Assembly (NCBI GenBank): GCA_900755895.1
Contig: CAAEIG010000052.1
Coordinates: 26,268-90,267, forward strand
Reading direction: 5' to 3'
From: Clostridia bacterium
GTDB lineage: Bacteria > Bacillota > Clostridia > Oscillospirales > Acutalibacteraceae
DNA length: 64,000 bases
Numbering within the stretch: position 1 is the first letter of the stretch; the number at the start of each line of letters is the position of its first letter. This document shows positions 414 to 19,514 of this stretch, in pieces. The notes under the pieces were generated by a model. The model was not told the DNA's origin, did not search any database, and saw only the letters and a list, made by a program, of their open reading frames with translations. The position numbers and the translations under genes were made by a program.

Positions 414-1505
414 ATGGCAATTCATTTTCACCATTCCCGCTGGGAGGCTATTCGGAAAAACTACGATGCCTGGTGGGATCATAAACTGGATCGTCCTTTG
501 ATCAGTGTACAATTGGAAACCCAAGATCCTGGGCGTCCCCAGCCCGCTGCACCGCTGCTGTCCCAGGAAACCGCCCTGGATCTCTCCTGGAGCCCAGAGG
601 ACTTGATTGACCGCATTGATTACGAGCTATCCAAACAGGAGTTCTTAGGCGACGCCTATCCCTACTTCAACATGGACTGTTTTGGTCCCGGCGTACTGGC
701 GGCATTTCTGGGAGCAACGCCTGATAACAGCACTGGACGGATCTGGTTTCATGTGGATGAACACAAGGAGCTTTCCCAACTGCACTTCCAATATCAGCCG
801 GAGAATGTGTGGTTTCAGCGCGTAAAGGATATTTACCGAGCAGCCAACCGAAAATGGAATGGTCAAGTCGTCATGGGGATGGTGGACCTTGGCGGTATCA
901 TGGATGTGTTGGCTGTCTTCCGAGGAACGGACAACCTTCTGATGGACCTCTATGACGAGCCGGAAGAAGTCAAGCGGTTGGTCAAGGAACTGCACGACTT
1001 GTGGATGCGCTACTATGGGGAACTGTGCGAAATTCTGGAGGAATGTGCACAGGGATACTCGGATTGGTCCAAGATTTTCTCTTCACAGAGAAGCTATATC
1101 ATCCAGTCAGATTTCTCCTTCATGATTAGCAACCCCATGTTCCAAGAATTCATTTTGGGAGAGCTGGAACAGTGTACGCAGGAATTGCCCCGCACCATCT
1201 ATCATTTGGATGGCCCAGGAGAACTGAAACACCTGGACGATCTATTGAACCTACCCCAGCTCAATGCGGTGCAATGGGTCCCGGGCGCTGCCTCCCCGGA
1301 TCAGTCTCATTGGCCGGAGGTGTACACTAAGATTCATCAGGCAGGAAAAGGAACTCAAATCTGGGACGGCTATGACTGCCTTAGAGCCGTAAAACAGCAG
1401 GTGGGAACGCTGGAAGGGGTACATTTCTTCTATATCGGTGGCCCCTGCAGTCCAGAGAAACGGGAGCAACACCTAGCTGCACTGAAAGAGTTTGGTGTGG
1501 AATAA
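414..1505 (+). CDS. Uroporphyrinogen-decarboxylase (URO-D)-like family protein (MtaA/CmuA-type fold), function unknown
   Basis: 363-aa ORF. The central segment MGMVDLGGIMDVLAVFRGTDNLLMDLYDEPEEVKRLV matches the recurrent URO-D-like signature (D.gG..dvl..frGte.l..dly..pe.v..l). It starts 12 nt after the ade stop, behind a GGAGAAG RBS. Confidence 0.4.
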   Translation: MAIHFHHSRWEAIRKNYDAWWDHKLDRPLISVQLETQDPGRPQPAAPLLSQETALDLSWSPEDLIDRIDYELSKQEFLGDAYPYFNMDCFGPGVLAAFLGATPDNSTGRIWFHVDEHKELSQLHFQYQPENVWFQRVKDIYRAANRKWNGQVVMGMVDLGGIMDVLAVFRGTDNLLMDLYDEPEEVKRLVKELHDLWMRYYGELCEILEECAQGYSDWSKIFSSQRSYIIQSDFSFMISNPMFQEFILGELEQCTQELPRTIYHLDGPGELKHLDDLLNLPQLNAVQWVPGAASPDQSHWPEVYTKIHQAGKGTQIWDGYDCLRAVKQQVGTLEGVHFFYIGGPCSPEKREQHLAALKEFGVE

Positions 1506-1687: not shown

Positions 1688-2725
1688 TCAGTCAGCCGTA
1701 ACAACGATCTTTATGACGCCGTCCAACCGATTCTCAAAGACCCGATAGGCCTCCTCGATTTGCGACAGAGGAAAGCGGTGGGTAATCAGCGGTGTGGTAT
1801 CCAGTTTCCCTTGTTCGATCAAGGAGAGAATCTCTGCACAATCACAGCCGTCCACGCCGCCAGTCTTAAACGTGAGATTCTTCCCATACATCTGGGGCAA
1901 GGGCAGGGTTTGATTCTCGTCGTACAGGGCCACCACCGTCACCACGGCATTGGGGCGGGCACACTTCCAAGCTAGTTCAAAAGTATTCTTTCCACCGGCC
2001 ACTTCCAATACCACATCCGCTCCTCCATGGTCAGAGGCTTCCTGCACAAACTCCTCACAATTCTCTGGCTCGCATACCAGAACCTGGGGGTAATGCTCCT
2101 GGACAAAACGCCGCCTTGCTTTCTCCTTTTCGCAGACAACAATCCTTCGGGGATGCTTCAGCATCACACACAGCAGAGTGCAAATCCCCGTGGGTCCTGC
2201 ACCAATAATCAACACGGTGTCCTCGGGTTGGATCTCTGAGATGCGAGCTGCCCAGAATCCCGTGGCCAGAATATCCCCCACAAACAGGGCTTGATCATCC
2301 GTTACACTATCAGGAATTCGATTCAGTCCTTGGTCTGCGTATGGGACTCGGACGTATTCCGTCTGTCCGCCATCAATGCGGCACCCCAAGGCCCAACCGC
2401 CATTGGCGTCAGTACAATTGTTCACATAACCATGCTTACAGAAAAAACACTGGCCGCAAAAAGTCTCCACATTTACCGTCACACGGTCCCCAGGTTGGAC
2501 AGAATGCACGTCGCTGCCCACCTGCTCTACAACACCTACCATCTCATGGCCCACAGTGATACCCGGCACAGCCCGGGGTACGCTGCCATGTTTGATATGC
2601 AGATCGCTGGTACAGATGGAACTCATGGTAACCCGGACGATAGCGTCTCGAGAATCCTGCAAAGTGGGTTTTGGCTTGTCCAGCAGTGCAAAATTTCCCG
2701 GTTCCAGATAGGTCAATGCCTTCAT
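1688..2725 (-). CDS. Zn-dependent alcohol/polyol dehydrogenase (MDR family: threonine/sorbitol/idonate dehydrogenase-like)
   Basis: MKALTYLEPG..., catalytic-Zn motif CTSDLH, GHEMVGVV, and a structural-Zn cysteine cluster CGQCFFCKHGYVNNC. The internal ATG at 2725 is preceded by AAGGAGGAGG. Confidence 0.8.
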   Translation of the reverse strand: MKALTYLEPGNFALLDKPKPTLQDSRDAIVRVTMSSICTSDLHIKHGSVPRAVPGITVGHEMVGVVEQVGSDVHSVQPGDRVTVNVETFCGQCFFCKHGYVNNCTDANGGWALGCRIDGGQTEYVRVPYADQGLNRIPDSVTDDQALFVGDILATGFWAARISEIQPEDTVLIIGAGPTGICTLLCVMLKHPRRIVVCEKEKARRRFVQEHYPQVLVCEPENCEEFVQEASDHGGADVVLEVAGGKNTFELAWKCARPNAVVTVVALYDENQTLPLPQMYGKNLTFKTGGVDGCDCAEILSLIEQGKLDTTPLITHRFPLSQIEEAYRVFENRLDGVIKIVVTAD

Positions 2726-2914
2726 GGATTTCCTCCTCCTTTTCCTCACGATGTTTTATGGAATACATCTGACAAAGGCAGTTCCCACACTTTCACCTGG
2801 AACTGCCCACAAAGAAATCTATCTGAAACTATTATACATAGCCACTCAGCAGTCCGCAATGGCTCTGAGAACTTTGACTATATGAAAATCCTGCTATTTT
2901 ACCGAAGAACAATG

Positions 2915-4213
2915 TCACGCCTGAGGCAGAGGAAACGTGCTGCCGCCGTGGGGCATGAGAGTGGTCTCCACTCCGTCAAGGGTACCGCCATTGCAATTGG
3001 CCGCCAGGGCTAACGCCTCATCCAGCGTCTTAGCTACCTGGATCTTTGTATGCTCAAAACACTCACCAGGAATGTCCGTGACCAAGATCAGATTGTAATT
3101 CTCCGATGCTTCGGCAAAGAGGAACCCCACAAATCCGCCAATGGAAAAATTTGCTCGGAGAGCTTTCTCCCGCTCCTCCATGGTGTCATAGGCGCAAATC
3201 TGAGCCTCGCAGTCCGGATCACCAAAGCCCTCCCGGCACTGGGACAGCAGGATCATCGTACCACCAGGGGCAACAGCCGCCAGCGCGTTTGAGAGCGTCT
3301 TGGACGTCTGATAGAGGTTGATGTCCTTTGGATAGCCGCCCGCACTGGCAATAACCAAGGGAGTGCGATGAGGAATGGGCACCCCATCCAGCTGCTCCAC
3401 CGCCTTGGTTGCAGCCTCGTGGGCCTTTTGCCAATCTCCTGCAAAAGCACCCACAATTTGGTAGTTGTCATCCACAAATACGTTGAGAAGATAGGCCGGC
3501 TTGGCAAAGGAAGCACACTCCACGAGATCGCTGTGAAAGGGGTTATCCTCCCCCATATTTCCATTGCAGACCCGGGGATTGGAACCACTGCCCAGGCCGT
3601 GATTGAGAGCATTATTGTGATTGGTGTTGATGGTCTCCCGGCCTGCAATACCGGGGACCACGGACTTCCGACCGCCGCCGAAACCCGCCAGGAAGTGGTA
3701 CACCACGCCACCGGTGAGAATCAGCTTGTCACAAGCCATGGCATAGCTGTTCAGCCACACCGGAGTTCCCCGGCTGCTGGTTCCCATATAGGTGAGATGC
3801 TCCTTGTCATCGCACTGGTGGTCCATAAACCGGACGCGGCGGTAGAGTTCCTCCCCAACCAGGGAGATGTGTTCCTCTTCCGTCTGCCGGCGGTGCGTAC
3901 CGGTTGCACAGAGAATGAGAATATCTTCGTCAGGGATTCCGGCCCGGTTGAGCCGTTCCACTAGAATAGGCAGGTACGTGCTAGGCTGTTGCCAACGGCG
4001 GGTGACATCAGAGATGATGATGCATACCTTGTCCCCAGCGTGGACGGCCTCCTCAATGGGACCAGCACCAATGGGATGGTCCAAAGCGTATTCGATGTGC
4101 TCCCGCACAGTCCGTTTGGGAAAATCCATTGTATTGGCATGGACCTCTGACACCACCTGCCGAGGATCCAACGACACAGAAAATTCTGTATCACTGTATT
4201 TCATCTTTTCCAT
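2915..4213 (-). CDS. LarA-family (nickel-pincer nucleotide-dependent) 2-hydroxyacid racemase/epimerase homolog
   Basis: Aligns by eye with L. plantarum LarA: IISDVTRRW vs ISSDHTRP, ATGTHR vs ATGFHR (His108), YHFLAGFGGGRKSVVPGIAG vs SHFFAGFSGGRKSVLPGIAS (His200), and IASAGGYPKDINLYQ vs ISTNGGYPLDQNIYQ. Start chosen at MEKMKY (4213), which has a GAAGG RBS. Confidence 0.75.
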   Translation of the reverse strand: MEKMKYSDTEFSVSLDPRQVVSEVHANTMDFPKRTVREHIEYALDHPIGAGPIEEAVHAGDKVCIIISDVTRRWQQPSTYLPILVERLNRAGIPDEDILILCATGTHRRQTEEEHISLVGEELYRRVRFMDHQCDDKEHLTYMGTSSRGTPVWLNSYAMACDKLILTGGVVYHFLAGFGGGRKSVVPGIAGRETINTNHNNALNHGLGSGSNPRVCNGNMGEDNPFHSDLVECASFAKPAYLLNVFVDDNYQIVGAFAGDWQKAHEAATKAVEQLDGVPIPHRTPLVIASAGGYPKDINLYQTSKTLSNALAAVAPGGTMILLSQCREGFGDPDCEAQICAYDTMEEREKALRANFSIGGFVGFLFAEASENYNLILVTDIPGECFEHTKIQVAKTLDEALALAANCNGGTLDGVETTLMPHGGSTFPLPQA

Positions 4214-4596
4214 AATAAATCGCCTTCTATGATTAGGATCTGCACGCAAACGCGCTAATATAGCGGATATAGTAGCACTTTACAGTGAGAAAGTCAAGAA
4301 ACTCATCACTCTATGAACAACTACTACCTTATGACGGAAAGAGAACCTGCCCCCAAAAAAAGCTTTAGGAAATCAATTCTAACTAGGTACCTGCGTCTGG
4401 TGGGGAAAGATTTTGTCAAAATGAAATCCGGATTCCACGAAAAAAACAATTGCACAGTCTAGCATCGCCAAAAATCATACAAACATCCCAATTTTTAGAT
4501 TTTATCTCCTTGGCACCTTGGAGGTTCTATGATACACTTAAAAAAACGCATTGAACTACCCATGTTTTTCCACATTACTGGCTAAGGAGGAATACT

Positions 4597-6822
4597 ATGT
4601 CGGAGACCAAGTTTACATTCTATCAAAATCCCAACGGGCCTAAGATCGGCACATCGTCGGCACCGATCATCGAACAGGACGGGCTGTATTTCAAAGACCT
4701 AGCAAGAACCGGAAACCTGCTTCCCTATGAGGACTGGCGCTTGGATGCCGACACCCGGGCCAAAGATCTGGCTTCACGCCTTAGCGTGGAAGAGATCGCC
4801 GGACTGATGATGTATTCCCCTCACCAGATGGTACCCGCCCTACCCGGCAGCCCCTTTCCTGCCACCTACGGCGGCAAGCCCTTCCCGGAAAGCGGGAAAG
4901 ACCCCTGGGATCTGTCCGATCAGCAAATTCTTCTTTTGGAGAGGGATCGCATCCGCCACATTCTTGCCATGAAACTGCAAGATGCAGAAACAGCCGCCAA
5001 ATGGAGCAATCAGTTACAGCAGGCAGCAGAAGAGCTTCCCTGGGGCATTCCTGTAAACATCTCCAGCGACCCTCGCCATGGAGCTTCCAAGGCCGGAGCG
5101 GAATATAAAAGCGGCGGCTGTGATGTTTCCAAGTGGCCCGAAGGCTTGGGCATTGCCGCTACATTCTCCCCCCAGGTGTGCCGGGAGCTGGGAAATGCCA
5201 TCTCCAAAGAATACCGTGCCATGGGAATCACCACGGCACTTTCCCCACAAGTGGATTTAGCCACAGAGCCCCGTTGGATGCGCTTTGAGGACACTTTCGG
5301 CACCAATCCCGACCAGGTGACTGAGCTGGGAAAAATCTACTGCGACAGCTTGCAAACCACCCAGGGCAGTCCCGACGGCTGGGGCCAGGACAGCGTGTGT
5401 GCCATGGCCAAACACTGGCCCGGCGGCGGCCCTTGTGAAGGCGGACGTGATGCCCACTATGCCTTTGGCAAATACGCTGTGTACCCGGGAGACAACTTCC
5501 AGGACCACCTGCACCCCTTCGTGGAAGGTGCTTTCCAACTGGATGGTCCAACCAAGTCCGTGTCTGCCATCATGCCTTACTACACCGTCTCTTGGAACCG
5601 GGACAAGAAAAACGGCAAAAATGTGGGGAACTCCTACAGCGAGTACCTCATCAAAGACTTGTTGCGCCACACCTACCAGTATGATGGGATCGTCTGCACC
5701 GACTGGGGCATCACCGGCGACCCCGCCCCTGTGATTGACTCCTTTGGCAGCCGTTGCTTCGGGGTGGAAGACCTCACCGAAGCCCAGCGTCATCTGCTGG
5801 CTATTGAGAACGGCGTGGATCAGTTCGGCGGCAACAGCAATATCGTCCCCATTCTGGAAGCCTACCGCTTGGGCTGCGAAAAGTACGGGGAAGAAGCTAT
5901 GAGGGCCAGGATGGAAGAATCAGCTGCACGCCTGCTGAAGAACATCTTCCGGTGCGGTCTTTTTGAAAATCCCTACCTGGATCCGGAAGAGAGTAAGCGA
6001 ATCGTAGGCTGCGAGGAGTTGTCCAAGGCAGGCTACCAGGCTCAGCTTCAGTCCGTGGTGCTGGTGAAAAATCAGCAGGCCTTGCCCATCTCTGAGAGAA
6101 AAAAGGTGTACATCCCCAAGAGAAAAATCAAGGCCAGGAAAAACTTCTTCCGTGGCATGGATCCCGAACGGGAGATTATCCCAGCAGACAAAAGCCTGGT
6201 GGAAAAATATTACCAGTGGGCGGACACTCCTGAGGAAGCGGACTTCGCCCTCGTGTTCATCGAAAGCCCTCTGTCCGATGGATACTCCCAAGAGGACGCG
6301 GACCAGGGCGGCAATGGCTATGTGCCCGTATCCCTGCAGTACCGTCCCTACGTGGCGGACCACGCCCGGGAAGTGAGCGTTGCCGGAGGGGACTTCCGGG
6401 AGAACTTCACCAATCGGAGCTACCGGGGCAAAATGGGTACCGCTGCCAACGAATCCGACCTGGATCTTGTGCTGGATACCAAGGCCGCCATGGGAGACAA
6501 GCCTGTAATAGTCTGTCTGCGGATGCACAATCCCACCGTGCTCTCCGAGCTGGAACCTTCCGCCGACGGTATTCTCATTGATTTCGGGGTGCAGACTCAA
6601 GCTATCTTTGACCTGGTATCCGGCAATGCGGAACCTTCTGGACTGCTACCCGTGGAGCTTCCCGCCAATATGGAGACTGTTGAGCGCCACTGTGAGGACC
6701 GTCCCTTTGATATGGAGGTGTACGTGGACCAGACCGGGAACTCCTACGGTTACGCCTTTGGCATGAACTGGAAAGGCGTCATCCAGGACGAGCGGGTCAC
6801 TCGCTACCTCAAACGGTCGTGA
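4597..6822 (+). CDS. Glycoside hydrolase family 3 (beta-glucosidase / beta-xylosidase-like), cytoplasmic
   Basis: 741 aa. GH3 N-domain signatures (KHWPGGGP, GIVCTDWGITGD). No signal peptide. Strong RBS TAAGGAGGAATACT-ATG. Confidence 0.8.
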   Translation: MSETKFTFYQNPNGPKIGTSSAPIIEQDGLYFKDLARTGNLLPYEDWRLDADTRAKDLASRLSVEEIAGLMMYSPHQMVPALPGSPFPATYGGKPFPESGKDPWDLSDQQILLLERDRIRHILAMKLQDAETAAKWSNQLQQAAEELPWGIPVNISSDPRHGASKAGAEYKSGGCDVSKWPEGLGIAATFSPQVCRELGNAISKEYRAMGITTALSPQVDLATEPRWMRFEDTFGTNPDQVTELGKIYCDSLQTTQGSPDGWGQDSVCAMAKHWPGGGPCEGGRDAHYAFGKYAVYPGDNFQDHLHPFVEGAFQLDGPTKSVSAIMPYYTVSWNRDKKNGKNVGNSYSEYLIKDLLRHTYQYDGIVCTDWGITGDPAPVIDSFGSRCFGVEDLTEAQRHLLAIENGVDQFGGNSNIVPILEAYRLGCEKYGEEAMRARMEESAARLLKNIFRCGLFENPYLDPEESKRIVGCEELSKAGYQAQLQSVVLVKNQQALPISERKKVYIPKRKIKARKNFFRGMDPEREIIPADKSLVEKYYQWADTPEEADFALVFIESPLSDGYSQEDADQGGNGYVPVSLQYRPYVADHAREVSVAGGDFRENFTNRSYRGKMGTAANESDLDLVLDTKAAMGDKPVIVCLRMHNPTVLSELEPSADGILIDFGVQTQAIFDLVSGNAEPSGLLPVELPANMETVERHCEDRPFDMEVYVDQTGNSYGYAFGMNWKGVIQDERVTRYLKRS

Positions 6823-6919
6823 GAAACTCCTTTTTCTAGAGGACACCAAAGTCCAACCTGATATAAGTTTGGATCTATAATCACCGCCGCAGCCGCGGCA
6901 GGACCACGGAGGGAACTTT

Positions 6920-9694
6920 ATGATTTTCCAGCCCAATTCCCATGACCTGACCCTTTCTCCCTGGGGACCTTATTCCCAGAAATACGCCGGAATCTCCCAT
7001 GTGGCGGACCCTGATCAGGGAGTCCGCTTTGACCTAAGTGTCTTTCCTGGACTGTACCGCCGCAAAGTGGAAGTGCCCAATGTAATGGTGGAAGGCAACT
7101 ACCACATTTGGGAGGCCTGCCCGGACTTGAGCTATTTTTCCACACGCCACGAGATCGAGGAAAAAGATCGGGTTTACTGCGACATCTCTTACGGAAAACT
7201 GGAAGAGGACGCCTACCTCATCCGAGCCAATTGTGTCAACCACAGCGATGATGTTCAAAACCTGGTGCTCCACTACATGGCGTCCATCCAGTTTCCCACC
7301 GTAAAAAACGATTGGGTTTCTCAGGAAGTGCCTCCGGTACAGTGGACCTTTCCAGAAAATTGCCTATACTGCCGGGCTGTGGATTACCTCCGTTTCTCCC
7401 GAGAAACCACCCTCCCCACCGATTCTTTAGTGCCCGACGGAAAACGCCCCAACGAAGTGCGGGGCCGTGGCTTTTCCGGCGGGTCGGCCGTGCTGCTCCA
7501 AGCGGGCAATGGCGAGAAAATGGACTTCCTTCTGGATGTTCCCCACAGCTTTTCCCAACCTGTTCTGGCGGTGCGGTATCAAAGCTCCTCGCCCTGTGTT
7601 TTAGCCGCCGAAGGGGATGGATTTCTGGCAGAGGGAATCCTTCCCTCTATAGAACAGACAGGCATTGCCTTCCTACCGGTGTCACAGTATCGAAGCGGAG
7701 AAAAATTGTCCTTTTCTTTGTGGGCAAAGGAAGGCACTCTGGTGGTGGATAGCCTGATCCTCTGTGAAAAGCAGGACGCACCTTCTCTCAACTGCCACTT
7801 GCCCCAGGAGCCTCACGTTCCCCAAGTGTGGGAGCTGGGCTCGGACAGTCCCTTGGACCAGAACACCACCATGTTGCCCCTGTTCAAGGACGCGGCAAAA
7901 GACCCGGATACCACCCACAATACTCTCATCTTGAAATACCCAACTGCTCAGGGATACTATGGGGTGTACTGGGACTTCCCGGACTACTGCCTGCGATATT
8001 GGCTCACTGACGAGCTGGATTACTCCCTGCGCTACTTAGCCCACGACCACGTCCGAAAAGTGCTGTCGGGCAACGGCCTGGGACATTTCTCCAACGTATT
8101 CCTCCGTCCCATCCCTGTAAAGCCCCAGGAAAGTCTGTCGGTGTACGGTGTGGTGTGCCGGGGTAGCTCCCGGGAAGAGGTGGAGCAAAAGCTATCCCAA
8201 CTGATCGTCAAACGAGCTAACTTTCCCCAGATGTGGGAAGACCAACGGGCTGCCGCTCTGGAAGCTGGGGGCAACCCCCAAGGAGAGCCCTACCGTTTTT
8301 CCCAAAACAGGATGATTGCCACTACTCTGACCAACGTGGTATACCCCATCTATACGAAGCGAAGCTACATTCGCCACAACACCCCGGGCAGGTGGTGGGA
8401 CTGCCTGTACACTTGGGATTCTGGTTTTGTTGGATTGGGGCTGGCCACCTGTGACATCCAGAGAGCAGTGGACTGCTTCAATGCCTATGTCACAGAGCCT
8501 GGTGACCAAGAAACCGCCTTTATTCATCATGGCTCCCCAGTACCGGTACAATTCTATTTATTCCAGGAACTATATGACCGCACCCAGTCCCGAGAGCTTC
8601 TGGCCTATTTCTATCCACGGTTGCTGCAATATTACCGGTTCATGGTGGGAAAGCTGGGCAGCTCCACCACGGACCTTTGGGAGTCCGGGCTGTTGCGGAC
8701 CTGGGATTATTTCTACAACTCCGGCGGCTGGGACGATTACCCGCCCCAGGTGGCGGTTCACGCCCAGAAGCTGGAAAGCTCCACCGCCGGCACGGTGACC
8801 ACCTCCCACATGATCCGCTGCGCCAAGATCCTCCAGTTTGTTGCCCAGACTTTAGGGGGACTGGAAGAGGACACCCATGAATTCCAGCGGGACATCCAGA
8901 AGCTGACACAAGCACTCCAGGATAACTGCTGGGATGAGGAATCCGGCTACTTTGGATATCTCACTCACAATACAGAGGGCAAGCCTCAAGGAATCTTCCG
9001 CCATAAGAGCGGTCAAAACTTCAACATGGGTCTGGACGGTGCCTCTCCCCTGCTGGCGGGTATTGTGACCTCTACACAGTTGGAGCGCCTGATCGGTCAC
9101 CTGTCCTCTGAGAAGGAGCTTTGGACTTCCATCGGGCTTTCCACCGTGGATCAGTCCGCCGCCTACTACAAAAAGGACGGTTACTGGAACGGCGCTGTGT
9201 GGATGCCCCATCAGTGGTTCTTCTACAAGGCACTATTGGACTACGGCAGAGGGGACTTGGCATTTCGCATTGCCAAAACCGCTCTGGACCTGTGGAAAAA
9301 CGAAACAGACCAGTCCTACAATTGCTTTGAGCATTTCATCATCGTATCCGGTCGGGGCGCGGGATGGCATCACTTTTCCGGTCTTTCCACCCCCGTGCTG
9401 TTGTGGTATCAATCCTACTTCCTGCCAGGAACCATCACCACAGGGTTCTCCGGGTGGGTGGTCTCCCAGACCTGGAACAACCATCACCAAGGCCTGGAAT
9501 GCGATCTTATCTTCACCGATGGAAAAGACCCCAAAACCGTGGTTCTAGTCATGGCGGAGGGACATTCCTATCGGGTGACCGCCAACGGCACACCATTGCT
9601 TGCTCTGGTCCGGGAGGGTGGAGCGCTGGAAGTGACCTTACAAGAACTTCCTATCTCTGGAGAGGTCCATCTGACCGTCACGCTGGAAGAGTAA
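6920..9694 (+). CDS. Large glycoside hydrolase, (alpha/alpha)6 six-hairpin type (GH63 / glycogen-debranching-like); family uncertain
   Basis: 924 aa with an N-terminal beta-sandwich region. Catalytic-domain-like segments (FYPRLLQYYRFMVG, WESGLLRTWDYFYNSGGWDDYPPQ, GYFGYLTHN, WMPHQWFFYKALLDYG) are typical of six-hairpin glycosidases. No signal peptide. Confidence 0.5.
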   Translation: MIFQPNSHDLTLSPWGPYSQKYAGISHVADPDQGVRFDLSVFPGLYRRKVEVPNVMVEGNYHIWEACPDLSYFSTRHEIEEKDRVYCDISYGKLEEDAYLIRANCVNHSDDVQNLVLHYMASIQFPTVKNDWVSQEVPPVQWTFPENCLYCRAVDYLRFSRETTLPTDSLVPDGKRPNEVRGRGFSGGSAVLLQAGNGEKMDFLLDVPHSFSQPVLAVRYQSSSPCVLAAEGDGFLAEGILPSIEQTGIAFLPVSQYRSGEKLSFSLWAKEGTLVVDSLILCEKQDAPSLNCHLPQEPHVPQVWELGSDSPLDQNTTMLPLFKDAAKDPDTTHNTLILKYPTAQGYYGVYWDFPDYCLRYWLTDELDYSLRYLAHDHVRKVLSGNGLGHFSNVFLRPIPVKPQESLSVYGVVCRGSSREEVEQKLSQLIVKRANFPQMWEDQRAAALEAGGNPQGEPYRFSQNRMIATTLTNVVYPIYTKRSYIRHNTPGRWWDCLYTWDSGFVGLGLATCDIQRAVDCFNAYVTEPGDQETAFIHHGSPVPVQFYLFQELYDRTQSRELLAYFYPRLLQYYRFMVGKLGSSTTDLWESGLLRTWDYFYNSGGWDDYPPQVAVHAQKLESSTAGTVTTSHMIRCAKILQFVAQTLGGLEEDTHEFQRDIQKLTQALQDNCWDEESGYFGYLTHNTEGKPQGIFRHKSGQNFNMGLDGASPLLAGIVTSTQLERLIGHLSSEKELWTSIGLSTVDQSAAYYKKDGYWNGAVWMPHQWFFYKALLDYGRGDLAFRIAKTALDLWKNETDQSYNCFEHFIIVSGRGAGWHHFSGLSTPVLLWYQSYFLPGTITTGFSGWVVSQTWNNHHQGLECDLIFTDGKDPKTVVLVMAEGHSYRVTANGTPLLALVREGGALEVTLQELPISGEVHLTVTLEE

Positions 9695-9708
9695 AAGAAA
9701 TAGCGAGC

Positions 9709-9745
9709 AAAAACAGCTTCCCAAAACGGGAAGCTGTTTTGTTTT
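9709..9745. terminator. Bidirectional terminator between convergent genes
   Basis: Hairpin aaacagcttcccaaaacgggaagctgtttt with T/A runs on both sides. Confidence 0.6.
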
Positions 9746-9751
9746 CAGCGG

Positions 9752-11560
9752 TTATCCCTCTTTTTTATAGTCAAAGTCGGGAATCTTGTGCCAGCGCTCC
9801 CGGAAGTAGTGGGCCACTAGCTTGGGCTTCCGGTCCCGGGTAAACAGGCCTTTCTTGTTGCCTTGAACACGAAGCATACTCTGGCTGGTGGCGAAGTCTG
9901 CAAAGTTCCATGCCTGCTCTCCCACCACAAACTCATACTCGTCAAATACGGAGTTGTTCATCTTGTAGTACTCCAACTGGTACTCCTCGGTATACATCAC
10001 CGGCGTGGTGTCGTGGAAGCCCATCACCGTGTCGGCGCCGTACTCTGTGAAGATCACCGGCTTGCCTATTGCTCTCCACTGGTCCAGCTCCTCCCGGAGC
10101 GCCTGCTGGGAGACTTCCAGATCCGGCCCGCCGTAATACCACCCGTAATACCGGTTCAGGCAGATCACATCGCTGAGCTTGGAGGAACAATCCGTATCCG
10201 GCGTTGTATTGATGGCGACGCTCACCAGAGTACAGGGACGCTTCTGGGGATCCAGCTCCCTGGCCAGCTCATACAAGGGAGCGAAGTACTCATAGGCTCC
10301 GGGGGCGCCGGAATCCGGCTCGTTAGCGATGCTCCACATCACTACGCAAGCGTGGTTCTTGTCCCGAGCGATCAAGTCCCGGATCACATCCTTATGGTGT
10401 TCCTGGGTCTGAACGCCGTGCTCCTTGTCAAAGGTCTCCACCTTCTGGCCGTTGAAGTTGGCCCCGCCTCCAAACTGGAAGTTGAGTCCCACAGCAGTGG
10501 TCTCGTCAATGACCACAAACCCCTCCTGATCGCACAGGCGCATCATCTCCTCGCTATAGGGGTAATGGCTGGTGCGGAAGCTGTTGGCCCCTTGCCACTT
10601 CATCAGGGACATATCTTTGGTATTCATGGGCAGGTTCATTCCCCGGCCATTGGGGAAGGTATCCTCGTGGCGGCCGTAACCTTTGAAGTAGAAAGGCCTG
10701 CCGTTGATGAGGAACTTGGTTCCCTCCACCTTCACTGTCCGCACGCCATAGGGCAGGGTATACACGTCCTGACCAAAGGTGACTCGGATGTCATACAGGT
10801 ATGCGTTCAAAGGCTGCCACAGGTGGACATTTTCGATCTCCAAGACACCTTGGGTTCCCTGGGACTGGGCCACCCTATTGCCTTCCCGGTCAAAGACCTC
10901 CACTAGACAACTGCCCTCTCCCACCGTTTCTACGGTATAGGTGAGCTTGGCGTCCTGACCGCAGACTTCCGGTGTCACCCAAATGTCCGCGATGTAATCC
11001 TTGGGAGTGGTATACAGCTTTACTGGACGGGTGATGCCACAGTAGTTAAAGAAATCAAAGTTGGGTCGGTTCTGAGGCTTTTTGGAGACAGGACCTCTCC
11101 CACCTCCCAGCATGTCCGACCGGCCTCCCACGGGAAGGGTGGTATAATCGATCACATTGTCCACAGCGATGGTGAGCAGGTTGTCCTCACCATCCCGCAA
11201 GTTCTGAGTGACCTCAACCTCAAAAGGCAGAAATCCGCCCCGATGCTCGCAAATCAACTCACCGTTAAGGTAGATCTTGGCGTGGTGGGTCACCGCGGCA
11301 CACCGCAGCACCACCCGCTGTTCTTTCACAAAGGCCGGTACCGAGATCTTCCGCTGATAGAATACCCAGCCGTAATGATCCCGAAAATCCACACCTTCCT
11401 TCAAGTCGTTGTAGGAGGCAGGCACCGGCATGGTCAGAGGATCCTTCAAGGGGACGGCATACCACTGGTCCTCAAAGCCGTGTCCATCGTCCAGCTTAAA
11501 GTCCCACACACCTCCCAAATCGCTCAGCAACCGGGAGGGAGTCAAAATCGGATATAACAT
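9752..11560 (-). CDS. uidA: Beta-glucuronidase (GH2)
   Basis: 602 aa, collinear with E. coli GusA (603 aa). MLYPILTPSR...DGHGFEDQWY...RVVLRCAAVTHHAKIYLNGELICEHRGGFLPFEVEVT matches MLRPVETPTR...RIVLRFDAVTHYGKVWVNNQEVMEHQGGYTPFEADVT. Confidence 0.9.
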   Translation of the reverse strand: MLYPILTPSRLLSDLGGVWDFKLDDGHGFEDQWYAVPLKDPLTMPVPASYNDLKEGVDFRDHYGWVFYQRKISVPAFVKEQRVVLRCAAVTHHAKIYLNGELICEHRGGFLPFEVEVTQNLRDGEDNLLTIAVDNVIDYTTLPVGGRSDMLGGGRGPVSKKPQNRPNFDFFNYCGITRPVKLYTTPKDYIADIWVTPEVCGQDAKLTYTVETVGEGSCLVEVFDREGNRVAQSQGTQGVLEIENVHLWQPLNAYLYDIRVTFGQDVYTLPYGVRTVKVEGTKFLINGRPFYFKGYGRHEDTFPNGRGMNLPMNTKDMSLMKWQGANSFRTSHYPYSEEMMRLCDQEGFVVIDETTAVGLNFQFGGGANFNGQKVETFDKEHGVQTQEHHKDVIRDLIARDKNHACVVMWSIANEPDSGAPGAYEYFAPLYELARELDPQKRPCTLVSVAINTTPDTDCSSKLSDVICLNRYYGWYYGGPDLEVSQQALREELDQWRAIGKPVIFTEYGADTVMGFHDTTPVMYTEEYQLEYYKMNNSVFDEYEFVVGEQAWNFADFATSQSMLRVQGNKKGLFTRDRKPKLVAHYFRERWHKIPDFDYKKEG

Positions 11561-11602
11561 AAGGCATCTTCCTTTCCCATGGCGATTCCGCCAGAAATAT
11601 TG

Positions 11603-11645
11603 AAAAGAAGGGACCCCGCAAGGTCCCCTTCTCCTCTTTAACTTA
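11603..11645 (-). terminator. Rho-independent terminator, likely for the Rrf2 gene
   Basis: Minus strand reads gaaggggaccttgcggggtcccttc followed by ttttcaatattt. Confidence 0.5.
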
Positions 11646-11801
11646 TATTTTATATTATTTGATTACAAAAACAAGTATTTTTTTGTTTAAATAGTCTGAT
11701 TTTCTTGTCTCTTTTTCAAAATTGCTATTCCCAGTCCCACCTAGTGCACCCACTATCGGGAAGTTTAGGAATAGCTAGAAGGCTTCTTTTATAGATCGAC
11801 A

Positions 11802-12197
11802 TTAGAGCAAGTCCGTCAGCCGCTTGCTGTAAAAAAAGTCCCGGACCATTTTGTCATATTCTTTCCACAGGGGCAGAGTTTGACAGGTTGATGCTCGCTT
11901 GCATGGTGACGCGCCTTTCGTCAGGCAACTGACAGTGGCCAGCGAGCCCTCCATCCATTCGAGAATTTCACCCACTGTGTACTCCTCCGGCTCACGGCAG
12001 AGCACATATCCCCCGCCATGGCCCCCTTGACCGAGCACCATATTCCCCCGAACCAGCTCTTTTACAATAATCTCCAGGTATTTCTTGGAAATTTCCTGCC
12101 TTGCGGCAATGTCCTTCAGAGGGATATTACCCTCCCCCCGATGCTCTGCCAAATCAATCATCACGCGCAGCGCGTAGCGTCCCTTTGTAGATACCAT
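11802..12197 (-). CDS. Rrf2-family transcriptional regulator (CymR/IscR-like)
   Basis: MVSTKGRYALRVMIDLAEH... is the canonical Rrf2 N-terminal wHTH. ATG at 12197 sits 6 nt after GAGGTG. The track's 12206 start is a GTG inside that RBS. Confidence 0.8.
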   Translation of the reverse strand: MVSTKGRYALRVMIDLAEHRGEGNIPLKDIAARQEISKKYLEIIVKELVRGNMVLGQGGHGGGYVLCREPEEYTVGEILEWMEGSLATVSCLTKGASPCKRASTCQTLPLWKEYDKMVRDFFYSKRLTDLL

Positions 12198-12276
12198 CTC
12201 ATTCACCTCGTTTGACCTATTCTACCACAGGGTGAATTGGTAAATCAATCTGCGATTCCAAAAACCCTTTAAACCT

Positions 12277-12306
12277 ATTGACATAGTAGGTCAATATTGA
12301 TACAAT
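12277..12306 (+). promoter_or_regulatory. metY sigma-A promoter (TTGACA-17-TACAAT) overlapped by inverted repeat ATTGAC-N7-GTCAAT (putative Rrf2 operator)
   Basis: -35 at 12278-12283, -10 at 12301-12306, inverted repeat at 12277-12295. The divergent Rrf2 promoter (TTGATT-18-TAGAAT on the minus strand) lies immediately upstream. Confidence 0.55.
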
Positions 12307-12338
12307 GCTCCTATGAAAAAACGGAGGAGAATGCAACT

Positions 12339-13619
12339 ATGAGCAAATACAGATTTGAAACTCTCCAACTTCATGTAGGACAGGAGCAAGCCGACCCAGC
12401 AACTGACGCCAGGGCGGTTCCCATCTACCAAACCACTTCTTATGTGTTCCACGATTCCGCCCATGCAGCTGCCCGGTTCAACTTGACCGATACCGGCAAC
12501 ATCTATGGCCGTCTGACCAACTCCACCCAGGAGGTTCTGGAAAAGAGAATCGCCGCTCTGGAAGGTGGTGTGGAAGCCTTGGCGGTGGCCTCTGGAGCCG
12601 CTGCCATCACCTACACTCTGGAAGCTCTGGCCCAGCAGGGCGATCATATTGTGGCGCAAAAAACCATCTATGGGGGCACCTACAATCTTTTGGCCCACAC
12701 TCTGCCCCAGTACGGTGTGACTGCCAGCTTTGTAGACGCCCACAATTTGGAAGAAGTAGAATCCGCCATCCAGCCCAACACCAAGGCAATTTATCTGGAA
12801 ACACTGGGCAACCCCAACAGCGACGTTCCAGATATCGCCGCCATTGCAGCTATCGCCCATAAGCACGGCCTTCCCCTGGTGATCGACAACACCTTTGGCA
12901 CGCCCTACTTCATCCGCCCCATTGAATACGGTGCAGACATTGTGGTTCACTCCGCTACCAAATTCATAGGCGGGCATGGAACTTCCTTGGGCGGCATCAT
13001 CGTGGATTCCGGAAAGTTTGACTGGAAGTCAAGCGGTAAGTTTGACCCCATCGCCCAACCCAATCCCAGCTATCACGGCGTCTCCTTTGTGGATGCCGCA
13101 GGACCTGCCGCTTTCGTCACATACATTCGAGCTGTTTTGCTCCGAGATACCGGTGCCGCCATCTCCCCCTTTAATGCGTTCATGCTGTTACAAGGTGTGG
13201 AAACTCTGTCCCTGCGGCTGGAACGCCACGCTAAAAACACCCAAAAAGTGGTGGAGTTTCTGGCTTCTCATCCTCAGGTGGCCAAAGTCAACCATCCCAG
13301 CCTAACGGACCATCCTGACCATGAATTGTATCAAAAGTATTTCCCCAAGGGTGGCGGCTCCATCTTCACCTTTGAAATTAAAGGTGGTCAGGAAGCTGCC
13401 TGGAAGTTTATTGACCATCTGAAAATCTTCTCTCTGCTCGCCAATGTGGCGGATGTTAAGTCCCTAGTCATTCACCCCGCCACCACCACCCACAGTCAGC
13501 TGAATAGGGCAGAACTGGCGGACCAGGGCATCACTCCCGGGACCATTCGACTGTCCATCGGGACGGAGCATATTGAGGACATCCTGGAGGATTTGGAGAA
13601 CGGATTTGCGTCCGTATAA
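12339..13619 (+). CDS. metY: O-acetylhomoserine sulfhydrylase (PLP-dependent, Cys/Met metabolism)
   Basis: MSKYRFETLQLHVGQE...PIYQTTSYVF... and a PLP-lysine region ...HSATKFIGGHGT are classic MetY/MetC-family features. RBS GGAGGAG lies 9 nt upstream of the ATG at 12339. Confidence 0.9.
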   Translation: MSKYRFETLQLHVGQEQADPATDARAVPIYQTTSYVFHDSAHAAARFNLTDTGNIYGRLTNSTQEVLEKRIAALEGGVEALAVASGAAAITYTLEALAQQGDHIVAQKTIYGGTYNLLAHTLPQYGVTASFVDAHNLEEVESAIQPNTKAIYLETLGNPNSDVPDIAAIAAIAHKHGLPLVIDNTFGTPYFIRPIEYGADIVVHSATKFIGGHGTSLGGIIVDSGKFDWKSSGKFDPIAQPNPSYHGVSFVDAAGPAAFVTYIRAVLLRDTGAAISPFNAFMLLQGVETLSLRLERHAKNTQKVVEFLASHPQVAKVNHPSLTDHPDHELYQKYFPKGGGSIFTFEIKGGQEAAWKFIDHLKIFSLLANVADVKSLVIHPATTTHSQLNRAELADQGITPGTIRLSIGTEHIEDILEDLENGFASV

Positions 13620-14110: not shown

Positions 14111-14470
14111 GTGAAAACCGTGATCGTACACAGAGGAGACATCTACTACGCAGATCTAAGCCCCGTCGTGGGCTCAGAACAGGGCGGCGTCCGACCGGTA
14201 CTCATCGTACAAAATGACGTGGGCAACAAATTCAGCCCCACAGTGATCGCCGCCGCTATTACTAGCCAGAAGGATAAGGCGAACCTGCCCACCCACATCG
14301 CTGTGGACGCCAAGGGCTCCGGACTGATCAAGGACTCCATCGTTCTTTTGGAACAAGTTCGAACCCTGGACAAGCATCGCTTGCGTGAAAAAATGGGCCG
14401 CCTCGATCCCGACTCCATGGATCGGGTGGATCAAGCACTTTCCATTAGTTTTGGCCTGCGCCCTACATAA
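14111..14470 (+). CDS. ndoA: EndoA/MazF (PemK-family) mRNA interferase toxin
   Basis: GTG start. Translation [65 protein letters not shown]... is near-identical to B. subtilis EndoA ([50 protein letters not shown]...). Confidence 0.9.
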
Positions 14471-17483: not shown

Positions 17484-19205
17484 TTATGTTTTCTCGTGCT
17501 TTTGCAGAAATCCCCGCACCTCTTCCTCGGTGGCCAAACTCATGGCCTCTTCCGTCACGGCGTTGGCCTCCTCCATGGTCCACAGAGAAATGGTCTTGCG
17601 CAGAGGCAACAGCGCTACGGGCGCAACGCTGAAGTTCTTCAGTCCAAAGGACAACAGCACCGGAGCCAGTGCCGGCTCCGCAGCTGCCTCGCCGCACATG
17701 CTCACGGGAATTCCGTTCTGTCGGGCAGTTTCCAACACCTGGCGGATCATCCGCAGGACCCCAGGGTGGAAATACGAATACAGATGGGCTACTCGGGCAT
17801 TGCCACGATCCACGCCCAAAACATACTGGGTCAAATCATTGGTACCCAAACTGAAGAAATCCGCCTCTTTGGAAAACACATCTGCCATCAGGCAGGCTGC
17901 TACCGTCTCCACCATCACGCCCAGGGGCAGGTTCTCATCAAAATCCACCTTCCGGCGGCGGAGAGCTTCCTTTTCCTCCTCTAGGATCTCCTTGGCCTGA
18001 CGGACTTCCTCCACGCCGGTAACCATGGGCAACAGCAGATTCGCCTTTCCATAAGCACTGGCCCGGAGCACAGCACGCAGGTGGGACCGGAACATCTCCT
18101 CCTCCCTCAGGGAGAACCGGAGGCCCCGGCAGCCCAAAAACGGGTTTTCCTCATGAGGTTGATGCAGATAGGGCAACGTCTTGTCACCGCCCACATCCAG
18201 CGTTCGAATCACCACACGCTTGCCCCGCATGGCTGCCAGGATCTGACGGTAAGCATGAAACTGTTCCTCTTCCCCAGGCTGAGAAGTCCGGTCCAGATAG
18301 AGAAACTCCGTGCGCAACAATCCAATGCCATCGGACCCATAACCCGCTGCTCGAGCAGCATCCCCCACGCTGCCGGCATTGGCTGCCAGCTGGATACGCT
18401 CACCGTCCGCAGTGACAGTCTCCCGCCCCACAAACTCCCGCAAGGATGCCCGCAGCTGCAGGAACTCCTTTTGCCGGTCCTCATAAACGGTGCGCATCAC
18501 CTGACCGGGGGAGAACACTGCACATCCCCGGTTGCCGTCCACGATCACCACTTCACCCGGAGTGGTGTCCATCACACGGTCTTCCAATCCCAGTACAGCG
18601 GGAATCTCCAACGCTCTAGCTAAAATGGCACTGTGAGAGGTGGGGCCGCCTTTGCCCAGGACAATTCCCGCCACATTGGCCGAATTGAGCACCGACACCG
18701 CCGAAGGGGACAATTCCTCCGCCATCAGCACAGTGCCCGGCTTCAAGGTGGAAAAATCCATCTCTGGGAGTCCCAGAAGCAACCGCAACACCCCGCCTCG
18801 CAGATCCCGCACATCTGCGGCCCGCTGGCGGGTCACCTCGTCCTCCGAAGCGGTAAACAAGTCTATGAACAGATCACAGCTGGCGGACAGAGCCGCTTCT
18901 GCCGACTGTCCCGACGCGATACGGCCCTCCACTTGGCCGTTTAAGTAAGGATCTCGGATCATATCCACCTGGCAGCGAATAATGTCCCCACGCTCTTTAC
19001 CGGCCATCTCTGCCACACGGTCCGCTTTTACCTCTGTGACATGACAGAAGGTATCCACCGCACTGTGATAGCGCTCCAGCTCCAATTTGGGGTCCGCGAT
19101 CTCACGCTCCAGGCTTCCCATGGGCTTTTCCTTGTAGATCAGGGCGTGGCCAATGCCAATTCCTGGAGAAGCCGCCACGCCATATAGCACCCGTTCACCG
19201 GTCAC
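17484..19205 (-). CDS. ptsI: PTS enzyme I (phosphoenolpyruvate-protein phosphotransferase)
   Basis: 573 aa. N-terminal GVAASPGIGIGHALIY and PEP-utilising / TIM-barrel C-terminal motifs (LGTNDLTQY). Confidence 0.9.
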   Translation of the reverse strand: MTGERVLYGVAASPGIGIGHALIYKEKPMGSLEREIADPKLELERYHSAVDTFCHVTEVKADRVAEMAGKERGDIIRCQVDMIRDPYLNGQVEGRIASGQSAEAALSASCDLFIDLFTASEDEVTRQRAADVRDLRGGVLRLLLGLPEMDFSTLKPGTVLMAEELSPSAVSVLNSANVAGIVLGKGGPTSHSAILARALEIPAVLGLEDRVMDTTPGEVVIVDGNRGCAVFSPGQVMRTVYEDRQKEFLQLRASLREFVGRETVTADGERIQLAANAGSVGDAARAAGYGSDGIGLLRTEFLYLDRTSQPGEEEQFHAYRQILAAMRGKRVVIRTLDVGGDKTLPYLHQPHEENPFLGCRGLRFSLREEEMFRSHLRAVLRASAYGKANLLLPMVTGVEEVRQAKEILEEEKEALRRRKVDFDENLPLGVMVETVAACLMADVFSKEADFFSLGTNDLTQYVLGVDRGNARVAHLYSYFHPGVLRMIRQVLETARQNGIPVSMCGEAAAEPALAPVLLSFGLKNFSVAPVALLPLRKTISLWTMEEANAVTEEAMSLATEEEVRGFLQKHEKT

Positions 19206-19483
19206 GGACGACCACCTCCTGCTTCACCCAAGCCCGTCTCCACCAACTCTACAGCCCGCGCCAGGGCTTCCTCTTCATCTTCACCGGAACAGCGAATTTC
19301 TACCTCGTCGCCGCACTGAATACCGGCGGCAATGAGGTTCATGATACTTTTTCCACTGACAAGAGATTCCTTATGGAAGACCCACACGTCCGAGAGGAAC
19401 TTCTGCATCTCGTTGGAAAACAGGCCTGCGGGCCGCACATGCAACCCCTCCCTGTTTTTTAAAACGACTTTTTTGGATACCAT
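19202..19483 (-). CDS. ptsH: Phosphocarrier protein HPr
   Basis: MVSKKVVLKNREGLHVRPAGLF (His15 motif) ... GKSIMNLIAAGI (Ser46 region). AGGAG lies 8-9 nt upstream. Overlaps the ptsI start by 4 nt. Confidence 0.85.
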   Translation of the reverse strand: MVSKKVVLKNREGLHVRPAGLFSNEMQKFLSDVWVFHKESLVSGKSIMNLIAAGIQCGDEVEIRCSGEDEEEALARAVELVETGLGEAGGGRP

Positions 19484-19514
19484 ACCATTCGCTCCTTTCC
19501 AAAGTTCGGTTGGA

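Follow-up and report, generated by a model that had tools for sequence, protein, structure and literature searches.

A stretch of 64,000 nucleotides from a Clostridia bacterium of the Acutalibacteraceae (GenBank assembly GCA_900755895.1, contig CAAEIG010000052.1, positions 26,268 to 90,267), referred to here as the window, carries three adjacent genes for large glycosidases: a glycoside hydrolase family 3 (GH3) gene and a gene for a 924-amino-acid (aa) protein on the forward strand, and a beta-glucuronidase gene, gusA, convergent with them (Table 1). The open reading frames (ORFs) have exactly the coordinates given in the original prediction, so that three real genes lie within 4597-11560. All three products exceed the Pfam gathering scores against which matches were judged, and none has a hydrophobic N-terminus or a predicted transmembrane (TM) segment; ORFs, Pfam and hydropathy agree with the description of three glycosidases without signal peptides, two on the plus strand and gusA convergent. 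A domain scan of the neighbours likewise bore out the claim that no permease, phosphotransferase system (PTS) enzyme II (EII), sugar solute-binding protein (SBP) or regulator of the LacI, GntR or AraC type is encoded within 10 kb of the genes. We consider it probable that the 7.2-kb block holding them is a self-contained cassette of two transcription units that has been relocated relative to sister species, and that this relocation accounts for the missing transporter and regulator.

Table 1. Features of the cassette and of its surroundings in the window.
Feature	Position	Strand	Remarks
Three-glycosidase module, 7.2 kb	4469-11688		Block common to sister species
Promoter-like site, GH3/GH63-like operon	4510-4538	+	TTGGCA, 17 nt, TACACT, upstream TG; consensus scan
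GH3 gene	4597-6822	+	741 aa; Pfam GH3_N 97 bits, GH3_C 39.5 bits
924-aa GH63-like gene	6920-9694	+	N-terminal beta-sandwich region, (alpha/alpha)6 barrel ~490-835, C-terminal beta-sandwich
Hairpin between convergent genes	9703-9745		A-run and U-run flanks; fold -27.9 kcal/mol, z = -4.2
gusA	9752-11560	-	602 aa; four GH2 domains (Pfam)
gusA leader, two hairpins	11580-11636	-	Fold -33.8 kcal/mol, z = -3.6
Promoter-like site, gusA	11647-11674	-	TTGTTT, 16 nt, TAAAAT; read from alignment, not called by scan tool
LarA homologue	2915-4249	-	Upstream neighbour of cassette
Zn-dependent dehydrogenase (Zn-ADH)	1688-2749	-	After LarA homologue
363-aa protein	414-1505	+	No significant Pfam match; faint URO-D, E 0.008
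Rrf2 regulator	11802-12206	-	Downstream neighbour, divergent from O-acetylhomoserine sulfhydrylase
O-acetylhomoserine sulfhydrylase (OAHS)	12297-13619	Opposite to Rrf2 gene	Followed by MazF toxin and CCA-adding enzyme
MazF/PemK-type toxin	14111-14470	+	Lone gene
PtsI and HPr	17484-19552		General PTS components
Cthe_2159-type carbohydrate-binding lipoprotein	58064-60076		Neighbour of second GH2 gene
Second orphan GH2 gene	61408-63165	-	585 aa

A shared block at two chromosomal positions

A survey of species-representative genomes took in the 80 gusA loci closest to that of the window (protein identity 71-95%); E. coli UidB, UidR and UidC (tblastn) and the window's own proteins served as queries, and ORF calls and counts of hydrophobic segments followed. 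The GH3 gene and the gene for the 924-aa protein, which we call GH63-like for the reasons given below, accompany gusA in three of these loci, in the same order and orientation: Clostridiales HRGM_Genome_3705 (L013), Clostridium sp. CAG:1013 (L014) and an uncultured Clostridia metagenome-assembled genome (L015), where the cassette proteins show identities of 91%, 79-85% and 93-95%. Among the 80 loci the cassette as a unit is confined to this small clade of gut Clostridia; outside it, the sampled homologues of the GH63-like protein (62-69% identity) and of GH3 (67-81%) lie in unrelated contexts. Comparison of L013 and L014 with the window by blastn returned the 7.2-kb block as the sole match, at 82% DNA identity, with the similarity stopping at both ends.

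In L014 the gusA side of the block is occupied by genes for a GH39 enzyme, an SBP (SBP_bac_1/8), two BPD_transp_1 proteins, an ABC_tran protein with a MalK OB domain, a GH51-type arabinofuranosidase and a MarR regulator, the last directly upstream of gusA, and a GH127 gene and a Na/H exchanger gene lie beyond GH3. The context of L013-L015 looks like a locus for imported oligosaccharides that contain arabinofuranosides and glucuronides. The GH39 protein has no signal peptide, and no TM segment is predicted in GH51 or GH127.

In the window the block stands instead between the genes for a LarA homologue and an Rrf2 regulator. Two metagenome contigs, L100 and L101, were retrieved by searching with the window LarA homologue, and in both the OAHS (92% identity), Rrf2 (90%) and LarA (90%) genes are contiguous, with a gap of 131 bp between Rrf2 and LarA that represents the empty site. 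The LarA promoter block of these contigs is common to the window at ~4260-4300, and the extra DNA of the window relative to them amounts to ~7.5 kb (~4310-11800), within which the cassette is contained. What had been called an island is, rather, a cassette that adjoins an ATP-binding cassette (ABC) importer and a MarR gene in sister species and occupies a different chromosomal site here. Flanks (79-82% DNA identity) and module (82%) have diverged equally and GC content is unremarkable, a pattern better explained by relocation among related lineages than by a recent arrival from a distant donor; on the same grounds, a recent horizontal transfer of the cassette was set aside as unsupported. In almost all of the related contigs examined, LarA is flanked by other genes on either side, and the region is therefore rearrangement-prone. 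Elsewhere the genes upstream of LarA are Fe-ADH and GH43 in one contig (L099) and PepSY and MatE in another (L098).

The block carries candidate control elements of its own. The promoter-like sequence before the GH3 gene is conserved in L013-L015, whereas sequence further upstream is not. The corresponding element before gusA (TTGTyT-16-TAAAAT) is also kept in the three loci and marks the edge of the shared block, the similarity stopping immediately before it. In the gusA leader, hairpin 1 (~11636-11603) comprises 13-15 bp, is GC-rich and terminator-like with a U-run, and is kept in L013-L015 with five pairs changed on both sides; hairpin 2 (~11593-11580; TGGCG-GAAT-CGCCA) lies just before the ribosome-binding site (RBS) and is invariant in the same loci. 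Scanned against Rfam at E <= 1, the stretch 4000-12400 produced no match for this leader, which could serve as an attenuator, as a 5' stabiliser or as the terminator of an upstream gene. The scan did return a Phe_leader hit at 9631-9743, which was rejected as chance-level (25 bits, cutoff 55). The gap of 97 bp between the GH3 and GH63-like genes contains an RBS and no terminator, and the hairpin between the convergent genes is, by its sequence and fold, likely a bidirectional terminator.

Put together, these features suggest two convergent units. In the first, a promoter would drive the GH3 gene followed by the GH63-like gene; in the second, a promoter would be followed by the structured leader and gusA, and the hairpin between the units probably terminates both transcripts. 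All three products would act as cytoplasmic exo-glycosidases. The cassette would have changed chromosomal position between related species, coming to lie here between the Rrf2 and LarA-homologue genes, and the transporter and regulator would be missing because it has moved away from the ABC importer and the MarR gene. As no transporter is linked to it here, its substrates would have to enter through a transporter encoded elsewhere. On this reading relocation, and not special biology, would explain the transporter-free cassette.

Several points weigh against this account. No insertion sequence (IS) element, integrase gene, tRNA gene or terminal repeat at the module ends reveals a relocation mechanism, and a repeat search of 4200-12300 gave only short, chance-level repeats, with no terminal direct or inverted repeats at those ends. 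The putative promoters and terminator were recognised by consensus matches and folding only. The terminator-like hairpin 1 sits between the proposed gusA promoter and the start codon, and it could be the terminator of the upstream gene, leaving gusA dependent on read-through. The mosaic neighbourhood of LarA in other relatives weakens a simple insertion story, and the empty site may instead reflect a precise deletion in the L100/L101 lineage. The comparison covered the window and pieces of +/-10 kb; L100/L101 and L013-L015 may belong to different lineages, and this genome may or may not retain the locus with the ABC importer, MarR, GH51 and GH127 genes.

The three genes might also be neighbours without functional meaning, independently useful orphan glycosidases gathered in a rearrangement-prone region. 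Each of them is found alone in housekeeping contexts in other taxa, the LarA neighbourhood varies among close relatives (L099, L098), and the window holds another orphan GH2 gene (Table 1). Against this, order, spacing and regulatory sequences are the same in four species and in two chromosomal contexts, which makes chance unlikely, since chance neighbours are not expected to move together. We judge a meaningless juxtaposition to be unlikely and retain the relocated cassette as our preferred interpretation.

gusA loci without transporter or regulator

The original prediction held the arrangement to be unusual, on the ground that glucuronide loci normally carry a GusB/UidB transporter and a UidR/GusR regulator. 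A UidB-like symporter gene does adjoin gusA in 41 of the 80 loci, mostly directly upstream on the same strand. Neither UidR nor UidC gave a tblastn match in any of them. Another protein with at least eight TM segments is encoded within 5 kb of gusA in four loci, and in the remaining 35 there is no multi-pass membrane protein within that distance, by a crude hydropathy measure that leaves ABC systems more than 5 kb away uncounted. Orphan gusA is nearly as common as transporter-linked gusA in this clade of beta-glucuronidases (GUS), and the claim that the arrangement is unusual is at most partly supported. No UidB-like gene was found in L013-L015, the loci that share the cassette; the window itself lay outside that tblastn search.

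Some of the transporter-free settings recur. In about 20 Lachnospiraceae species (L050-L083) gusA, 74-76% identical, occupies a conserved housekeeping setting that includes neither transporter nor regulator: aroA (EPSP synthase) on one side, an HD-domain gene on the other, and citrate synthase alongside; at one further locus gusA is flanked by DNA methyltransferase genes. By contrast, a UidB-like symporter gene, lacking in the window, immediately precedes gusA at five Lachnospira loci (L043, L044, L048, L059 and L061). With nearly half of the closest gusA loci transporter-free and UidR found in none of the 80, the function of a GUS in Clostridia can hardly be read from its gene context.

The gusRABC model was described for E. 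coli and other Pseudomonadota (PMC9881133). Whereas the E. coli uidR-uidABC locus comprises a UidB-type symporter, the TetR-type repressor UidR and UidC, the window has none of these, and its gusA is monocistronic and convergent with two other glycosidase genes. No TetR domain was found among the cassette neighbours (Pfam). The regulator gene upstream of gusA is Rrf2 in the window and MarR in the sister species. Rrf2 was considered as a gus regulator and set aside, because its divergent pairing with the sulfhydrylase gene persists in L100 and L101, which have no gusA.

The three enzymes

All three enzymes can be assigned by sequence to known families. GusA scores 804 bits on the NCBIfam beta-glucuronidase equivalog (PRK10150; cutoff 544), and its closest solved structures are those of Eubacterium (Lachnospira) eligens GUS, EeGUS (6BO6, 6BJW, 6BJQ and 6D4O; 1104 bits), with 466 of 598 residues identical (78%). 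Its catalytic glutamates E414 (WSIANEPD) and E506 (FTEYGAD) align with E413 and E504 of E. coli GUS, and N568 and K570 in QGNKKGLFT correspond to N566 and K568 of the carboxylate-binding N-x-K motif. EeGUS likewise has both glutamates and the N-x-K motif and lacks a signal peptide; the N-terminus of GusA, MLYPILTPSRLLSDLGG, contains no hydrophobic segment. The Loop-1 stretches of GusA and EeGUS are equal in length and align without gaps (34 of 41 residues identical), whereas GusA has four residues fewer at the 'Ee extra loop' (EeGUS M149-A159). E. coli GUS, at 45% identity, belongs to the same loop class, the Loop 1 of the window enzyme being one residue shorter. The loop type, which the original prediction had proposed to determine, is Loop 1 by both alignments, a call based on length match to the E. 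coli and EeGUS loops rather than on the original numeric length thresholds.

By its sequence GusA is an ordinary Loop-1 GH2 beta-glucuronidase, and a role in freeing glucuronic acid (GlcA) from imported small glucuronides is well supported by its homology to characterised enzymes. Loop-1 GUS enzymes reactivate drug glucuronides in the gut. EeGUS itself is listed as a Loop-1 (L1) enzyme, with kinetics on pNPG and diclofenac glucuronide (PMC6351562). Since L1 enzymes are intracellular and without signal peptides (PMC8928169), the missing signal peptide in GusA is normal.

For the GH3 enzyme the closest solved structures are 9UL7 (E 1.7e-92) and SN243 (E 4e-54), with ordinary GH3 enzymes far behind. 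Foldseek with an AlphaFold2 model (pLDDT 87.7) gave the same top two in the same order (E 9e-48 for 9UL7 and 1e-43 for SN243, PDB 7QE1/7QE2), at identities of about 24-29%. SN243 is a metagenomic GH3 beta-glucuronidase obtained by droplet screening. It has a NagZ-like extended motif, KH(F/I)PG(H/L/G)G-X6-D(S/T/P)H, with Asp331 and His333 as its acid/base dyad; the nucleophile is Asp415, and the C6 carboxylate is bound by Arg136, which follows strand beta1 (bioRxiv 10.1101/2022.04.25.489410). The window GH3 has the corresponding motif K272-HWPGGGPCEGGRD285-A-H287, with W for F/I and A for S/T/P, and its D369 (GIVCTDWGI) aligns with the SN243 nucleophile. Across 49 GH3 homologues K272, H273, D285, H287, D369, R229 and Y329 are invariant, and R386, the counterpart of SN243 R422, is conserved in at least 90%. 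The low model confidence at the acid/base loop fits the loop mobility described for SN243. These residues place the enzyme in the SN243/9UL7 subgroup as a predicted cytoplasmic retaining beta-glycosidase with an Asp-His acid/base dyad; SN243, by contrast, carries a signal peptide and is anchored to the membrane at its C-terminus.

The likeness to SN243 raises the question of whether the GH3 enzyme is itself a beta-glucuronidase, in which case the cassette would hold two unrelated glucuronidases and GH2-based GUS catalogues would lack a GH3 type that abounds in gut Clostridia. Sequence and fold searches both rank SN243 second among solved structures, the dyad motifs have the same spacing (KHWPGGG-X6-DAH against KHFPGGG-X6-DPH), counterparts of SN243 K318, H319, R272, Y369, R422 and D415 are all present, and the gene shares its cassette with gusA. 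Yet in the fold alignment no more than ~24-25% of residues are identical to SN243, and the deposit of 9UL7, the closer relative, names it a beta-glucosidase or 'GH3 glycosidase', an assignment known solely from the deposit title and molecule name; a literature search found no paper on it. In CAZy, SN243 has as its nearest characterised relative a beta-glycosidase of Terrabacter ginsenosidimutans (bioRxiv 10.1101/2022.04.25.489410). The carboxylate-binding Arg136, which determines glucuronidase specificity rather than membership of the subgroup, is moreover placed at three different positions by three alignment methods: Q110 (HMMER), R120 (MAFFT) and M125/K126 (manual). As strand beta1 spans 121-127 in the model, the equivalent site would be K126-D129 at its C-terminal end, which is variable in the family, whereas the invariant R120 is at the opposite end of the strand. 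A second glucuronidase is in our judgement attractive but weakly supported, and very doubtful as an account of the locus; a beta-glucosidase that acts on glycosides bearing an aglycone appears the more likely reading.

Members of this GH3 family are very abundant in gut Clostridia, with identities of 65-80% in Acutalibacter, Lachnospiraceae, Roseburia and Clostridium, and the homologues at 67-81% identity are orphan genes in all three sampled contexts. In two of the three, an alpha/beta-hydrolase (esterase-like) gene lies directly upstream; such a neighbour would suit acylated glycoside substrates for GH3 enzymes of the SN243/9UL7 type.

The 924-aa protein was originally described as a six-hairpin glycosidase that could not be assigned to a family. 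The first part of this description stands, and we too found no characterised close relative; an assignment can, however, be proposed. Residues ~498-830 match the Pfam families MGH1-like_GH (112.7 bits, cutoff 27), Glyco_hydro_63 (53.1, cutoff 22.4) and, weakly, Trehalase, and contain the (alpha/alpha)6 catalytic barrel characteristic of GH63 and clan GH-G. The protein falls far below every cutoff of the NCBIfam equivalogs (YgjK-type alpha-glucosidase, glucosylglycerate hydrolase and TreF). Among characterised enzymes it scores 35.5 against the Thermus GH63 mannosylglycerate hydrolase (2Z07/4WVB; 22% identity), 33.4 against E. coli YgjK, 33.0 against glucosidase I, 31-32 against trehalases and 30.6 against glucosylglycerate hydrolase.

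Profile-profile and profile-PDB alignments spanned only the C-terminal third of the barrel, and the YgjK general acid was therefore matched by motif. D500 (YTWDSG) corresponds to YgjK D324 (WPWDTW) and D605 (NSGGWDD) to the general acid D501 (ESGRDD), both by motif comparison only, and E804 (CFEHFI) to the general base E727 (IQENYN), a match also given by the HMMER alignment. All three are invariant in 73 homologues. The matched and invariant YgjK carboxylates argue for a GH63-like member of clan GH-G that keeps the three active-site residues and, by inference from YgjK, may act as an inverting alpha-glycosidase. It differs from YgjK, the Thermus enzyme and endoplasmic reticulum (ER) alpha-glucosidase I in being at most 22% identical to them, in having ~490 N-terminal residues without a Pfam match and an extra C-terminal beta-sandwich, and in its cytoplasmic location.

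This protein belongs to a well-conserved ~900-aa family of its own, with 1,105 database matches at ~47% identity that include Paenibacillus, Neobacillus, Anaerolineae, Halanaerobium and Melioribacteraceae; structure, profile and literature searches found no characterised or crystallised member. In Paenibacillus and Neobacillus the gene comes last in operons that encode an ABC importer and two-component regulators; in Halanaerobium it is accompanied by GH31, GH130 and GFO/IDH/MocA genes, and in a Melioribacteraceae genome by genes for a major facilitator superfamily (MFS) transporter and GH106. Of the three closest relatives sampled, two (62-63% identity) stand alone in housekeeping surroundings and the third (69%) is beside a convergent cluster of ABC-permease and AraC-type two-component genes. 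These contexts point to no single substrate.

GFO/IDH/MocA oxidoreductase genes adjoin the GH63-like gene or lie close to it in three of the four distant contexts, one of which also contains a xylose-isomerase-like TIM-barrel protein, and nothing similar occurs in the window; these neighbours hint that the product or substrate of the family passes through an oxidised sugar. A URO-D-like gene adjoins the 69%-identical homologue, a finding to be compared with the faint URO-D match of the 363-aa protein in the window. In the 90%-identity cluster of the 924-aa protein, members with lengths of 460-464 aa and 650-709 aa recur and are found on as many as 16 contigs (the longest 282 kb), which suggests frameshifted or split gene copies in some strains or assemblies.

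Surroundings, substrates and significance

The remainder of the window is ordinary chromosomal DNA, with genes for PtsI/HPr, glycogen phosphorylase, MalQ, RecQ and a NagZ-like GH3 enzyme. On the LarA side of the cassette the Zn-ADH gene follows and an adenine deaminase gene lies further upstream. Against the NCBIfam LarAH10 2-hydroxyacid racemase model the LarA homologue (within 1688-4249) reaches 492 bits, a little short of the cutoff of 540. The second GH2 protein reaches 129 bits on the beta-glucuronidase model, against the cutoff of 544; its gene has no sugar transporter nearby, and its neighbours encode a flavodoxin, the Cthe_2159-type lipoprotein, a DUF4956 protein and an ABC-2 permease. 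Nowhere in the window does a gene product exceed six predicted TM segments, and there is none in 1-15 kb. A transporter or regulator just outside the window, which the original prediction saw, together with a well-characterised family for the 924-aa protein, as the sign of an ordinary locus, was looked for to the left of it on the source contig, where the sole transport system is an amino-acid ABC system (SBP_bac_3).

The cassette might also encode one pathway, in which the three enzymes sequentially deglycosylate an imported plant-derived oligosaccharide or glycoside containing beta-GlcA; candidates include side chains of arabinogalactan-protein (AGP) or gum arabic, a saponin, or a glycoside of a flavonoid. 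The GH63-like enzyme would cut an alpha-linked cap, GH3 a beta-linked sugar, and GusA the GlcA. The three genes and their conserved regulatory regions stay together in four species despite different flanks, and in the sister species they keep company with GH39, GH51 and GH127 genes and an ABC sugar importer. The GH39, GH51 and GH127 families are associated with arabinofuranoside and AGP degradation. Arabinogalactans and rhamnogalacturonans are listed as natural beta-glucuronide sources, and the nearest characterised relative named for the GH3 subgroup comes from Terrabacter ginsenosidimutans (bioRxiv 10.1101/2022.04.25.489410), an organism whose name suggests ginsenoside substrates. On the other hand, in the contexts sampled the three genes are never neighbours outside the small clade, gusA forms a separate convergent transcription unit, and Loop-1 GUS enzymes have been characterised on small-molecule glucuronides (PMC6351562). 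We think a single pathway rather unlikely, although co-inheritance and the company of GH39, GH51 and GH127 suggest a plant arabinogalactan-type or glycoside substrate with beta-GlcA.

A further-reaching version, which we hold to be quite improbable, is that the cassette provides a complete cytoplasmic route for a GlcA-containing plant or host glycoside, with a new clan GH-G specificity, a GH3 enzyme acting as a non-GH2 glucuronidase or xenobiotic glycosidase, or both. If true, it would mean that a drug- or phytochemical-deconjugating activity has been missed by GH2-based GUS catalogues and by Loop-1-targeted inhibitors.

GusA is close to a well-studied enzyme and adds little by itself. The GH3 enzymes of the SN243/9UL7 type and the ~900-aa GH63-like family, by contrast, are abundant in gut metagenomes, and we found no member of either with a known natural substrate; their linkage to gusA, together with the GH39, GH51 and GH127 genes and the ABC importer of the sister species, provides a concrete short list of substrates. 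The relocation of the cassette would, in addition, cleanly illustrate how a catabolic unit of several genes can move in the absence of recognisable mobility genes.

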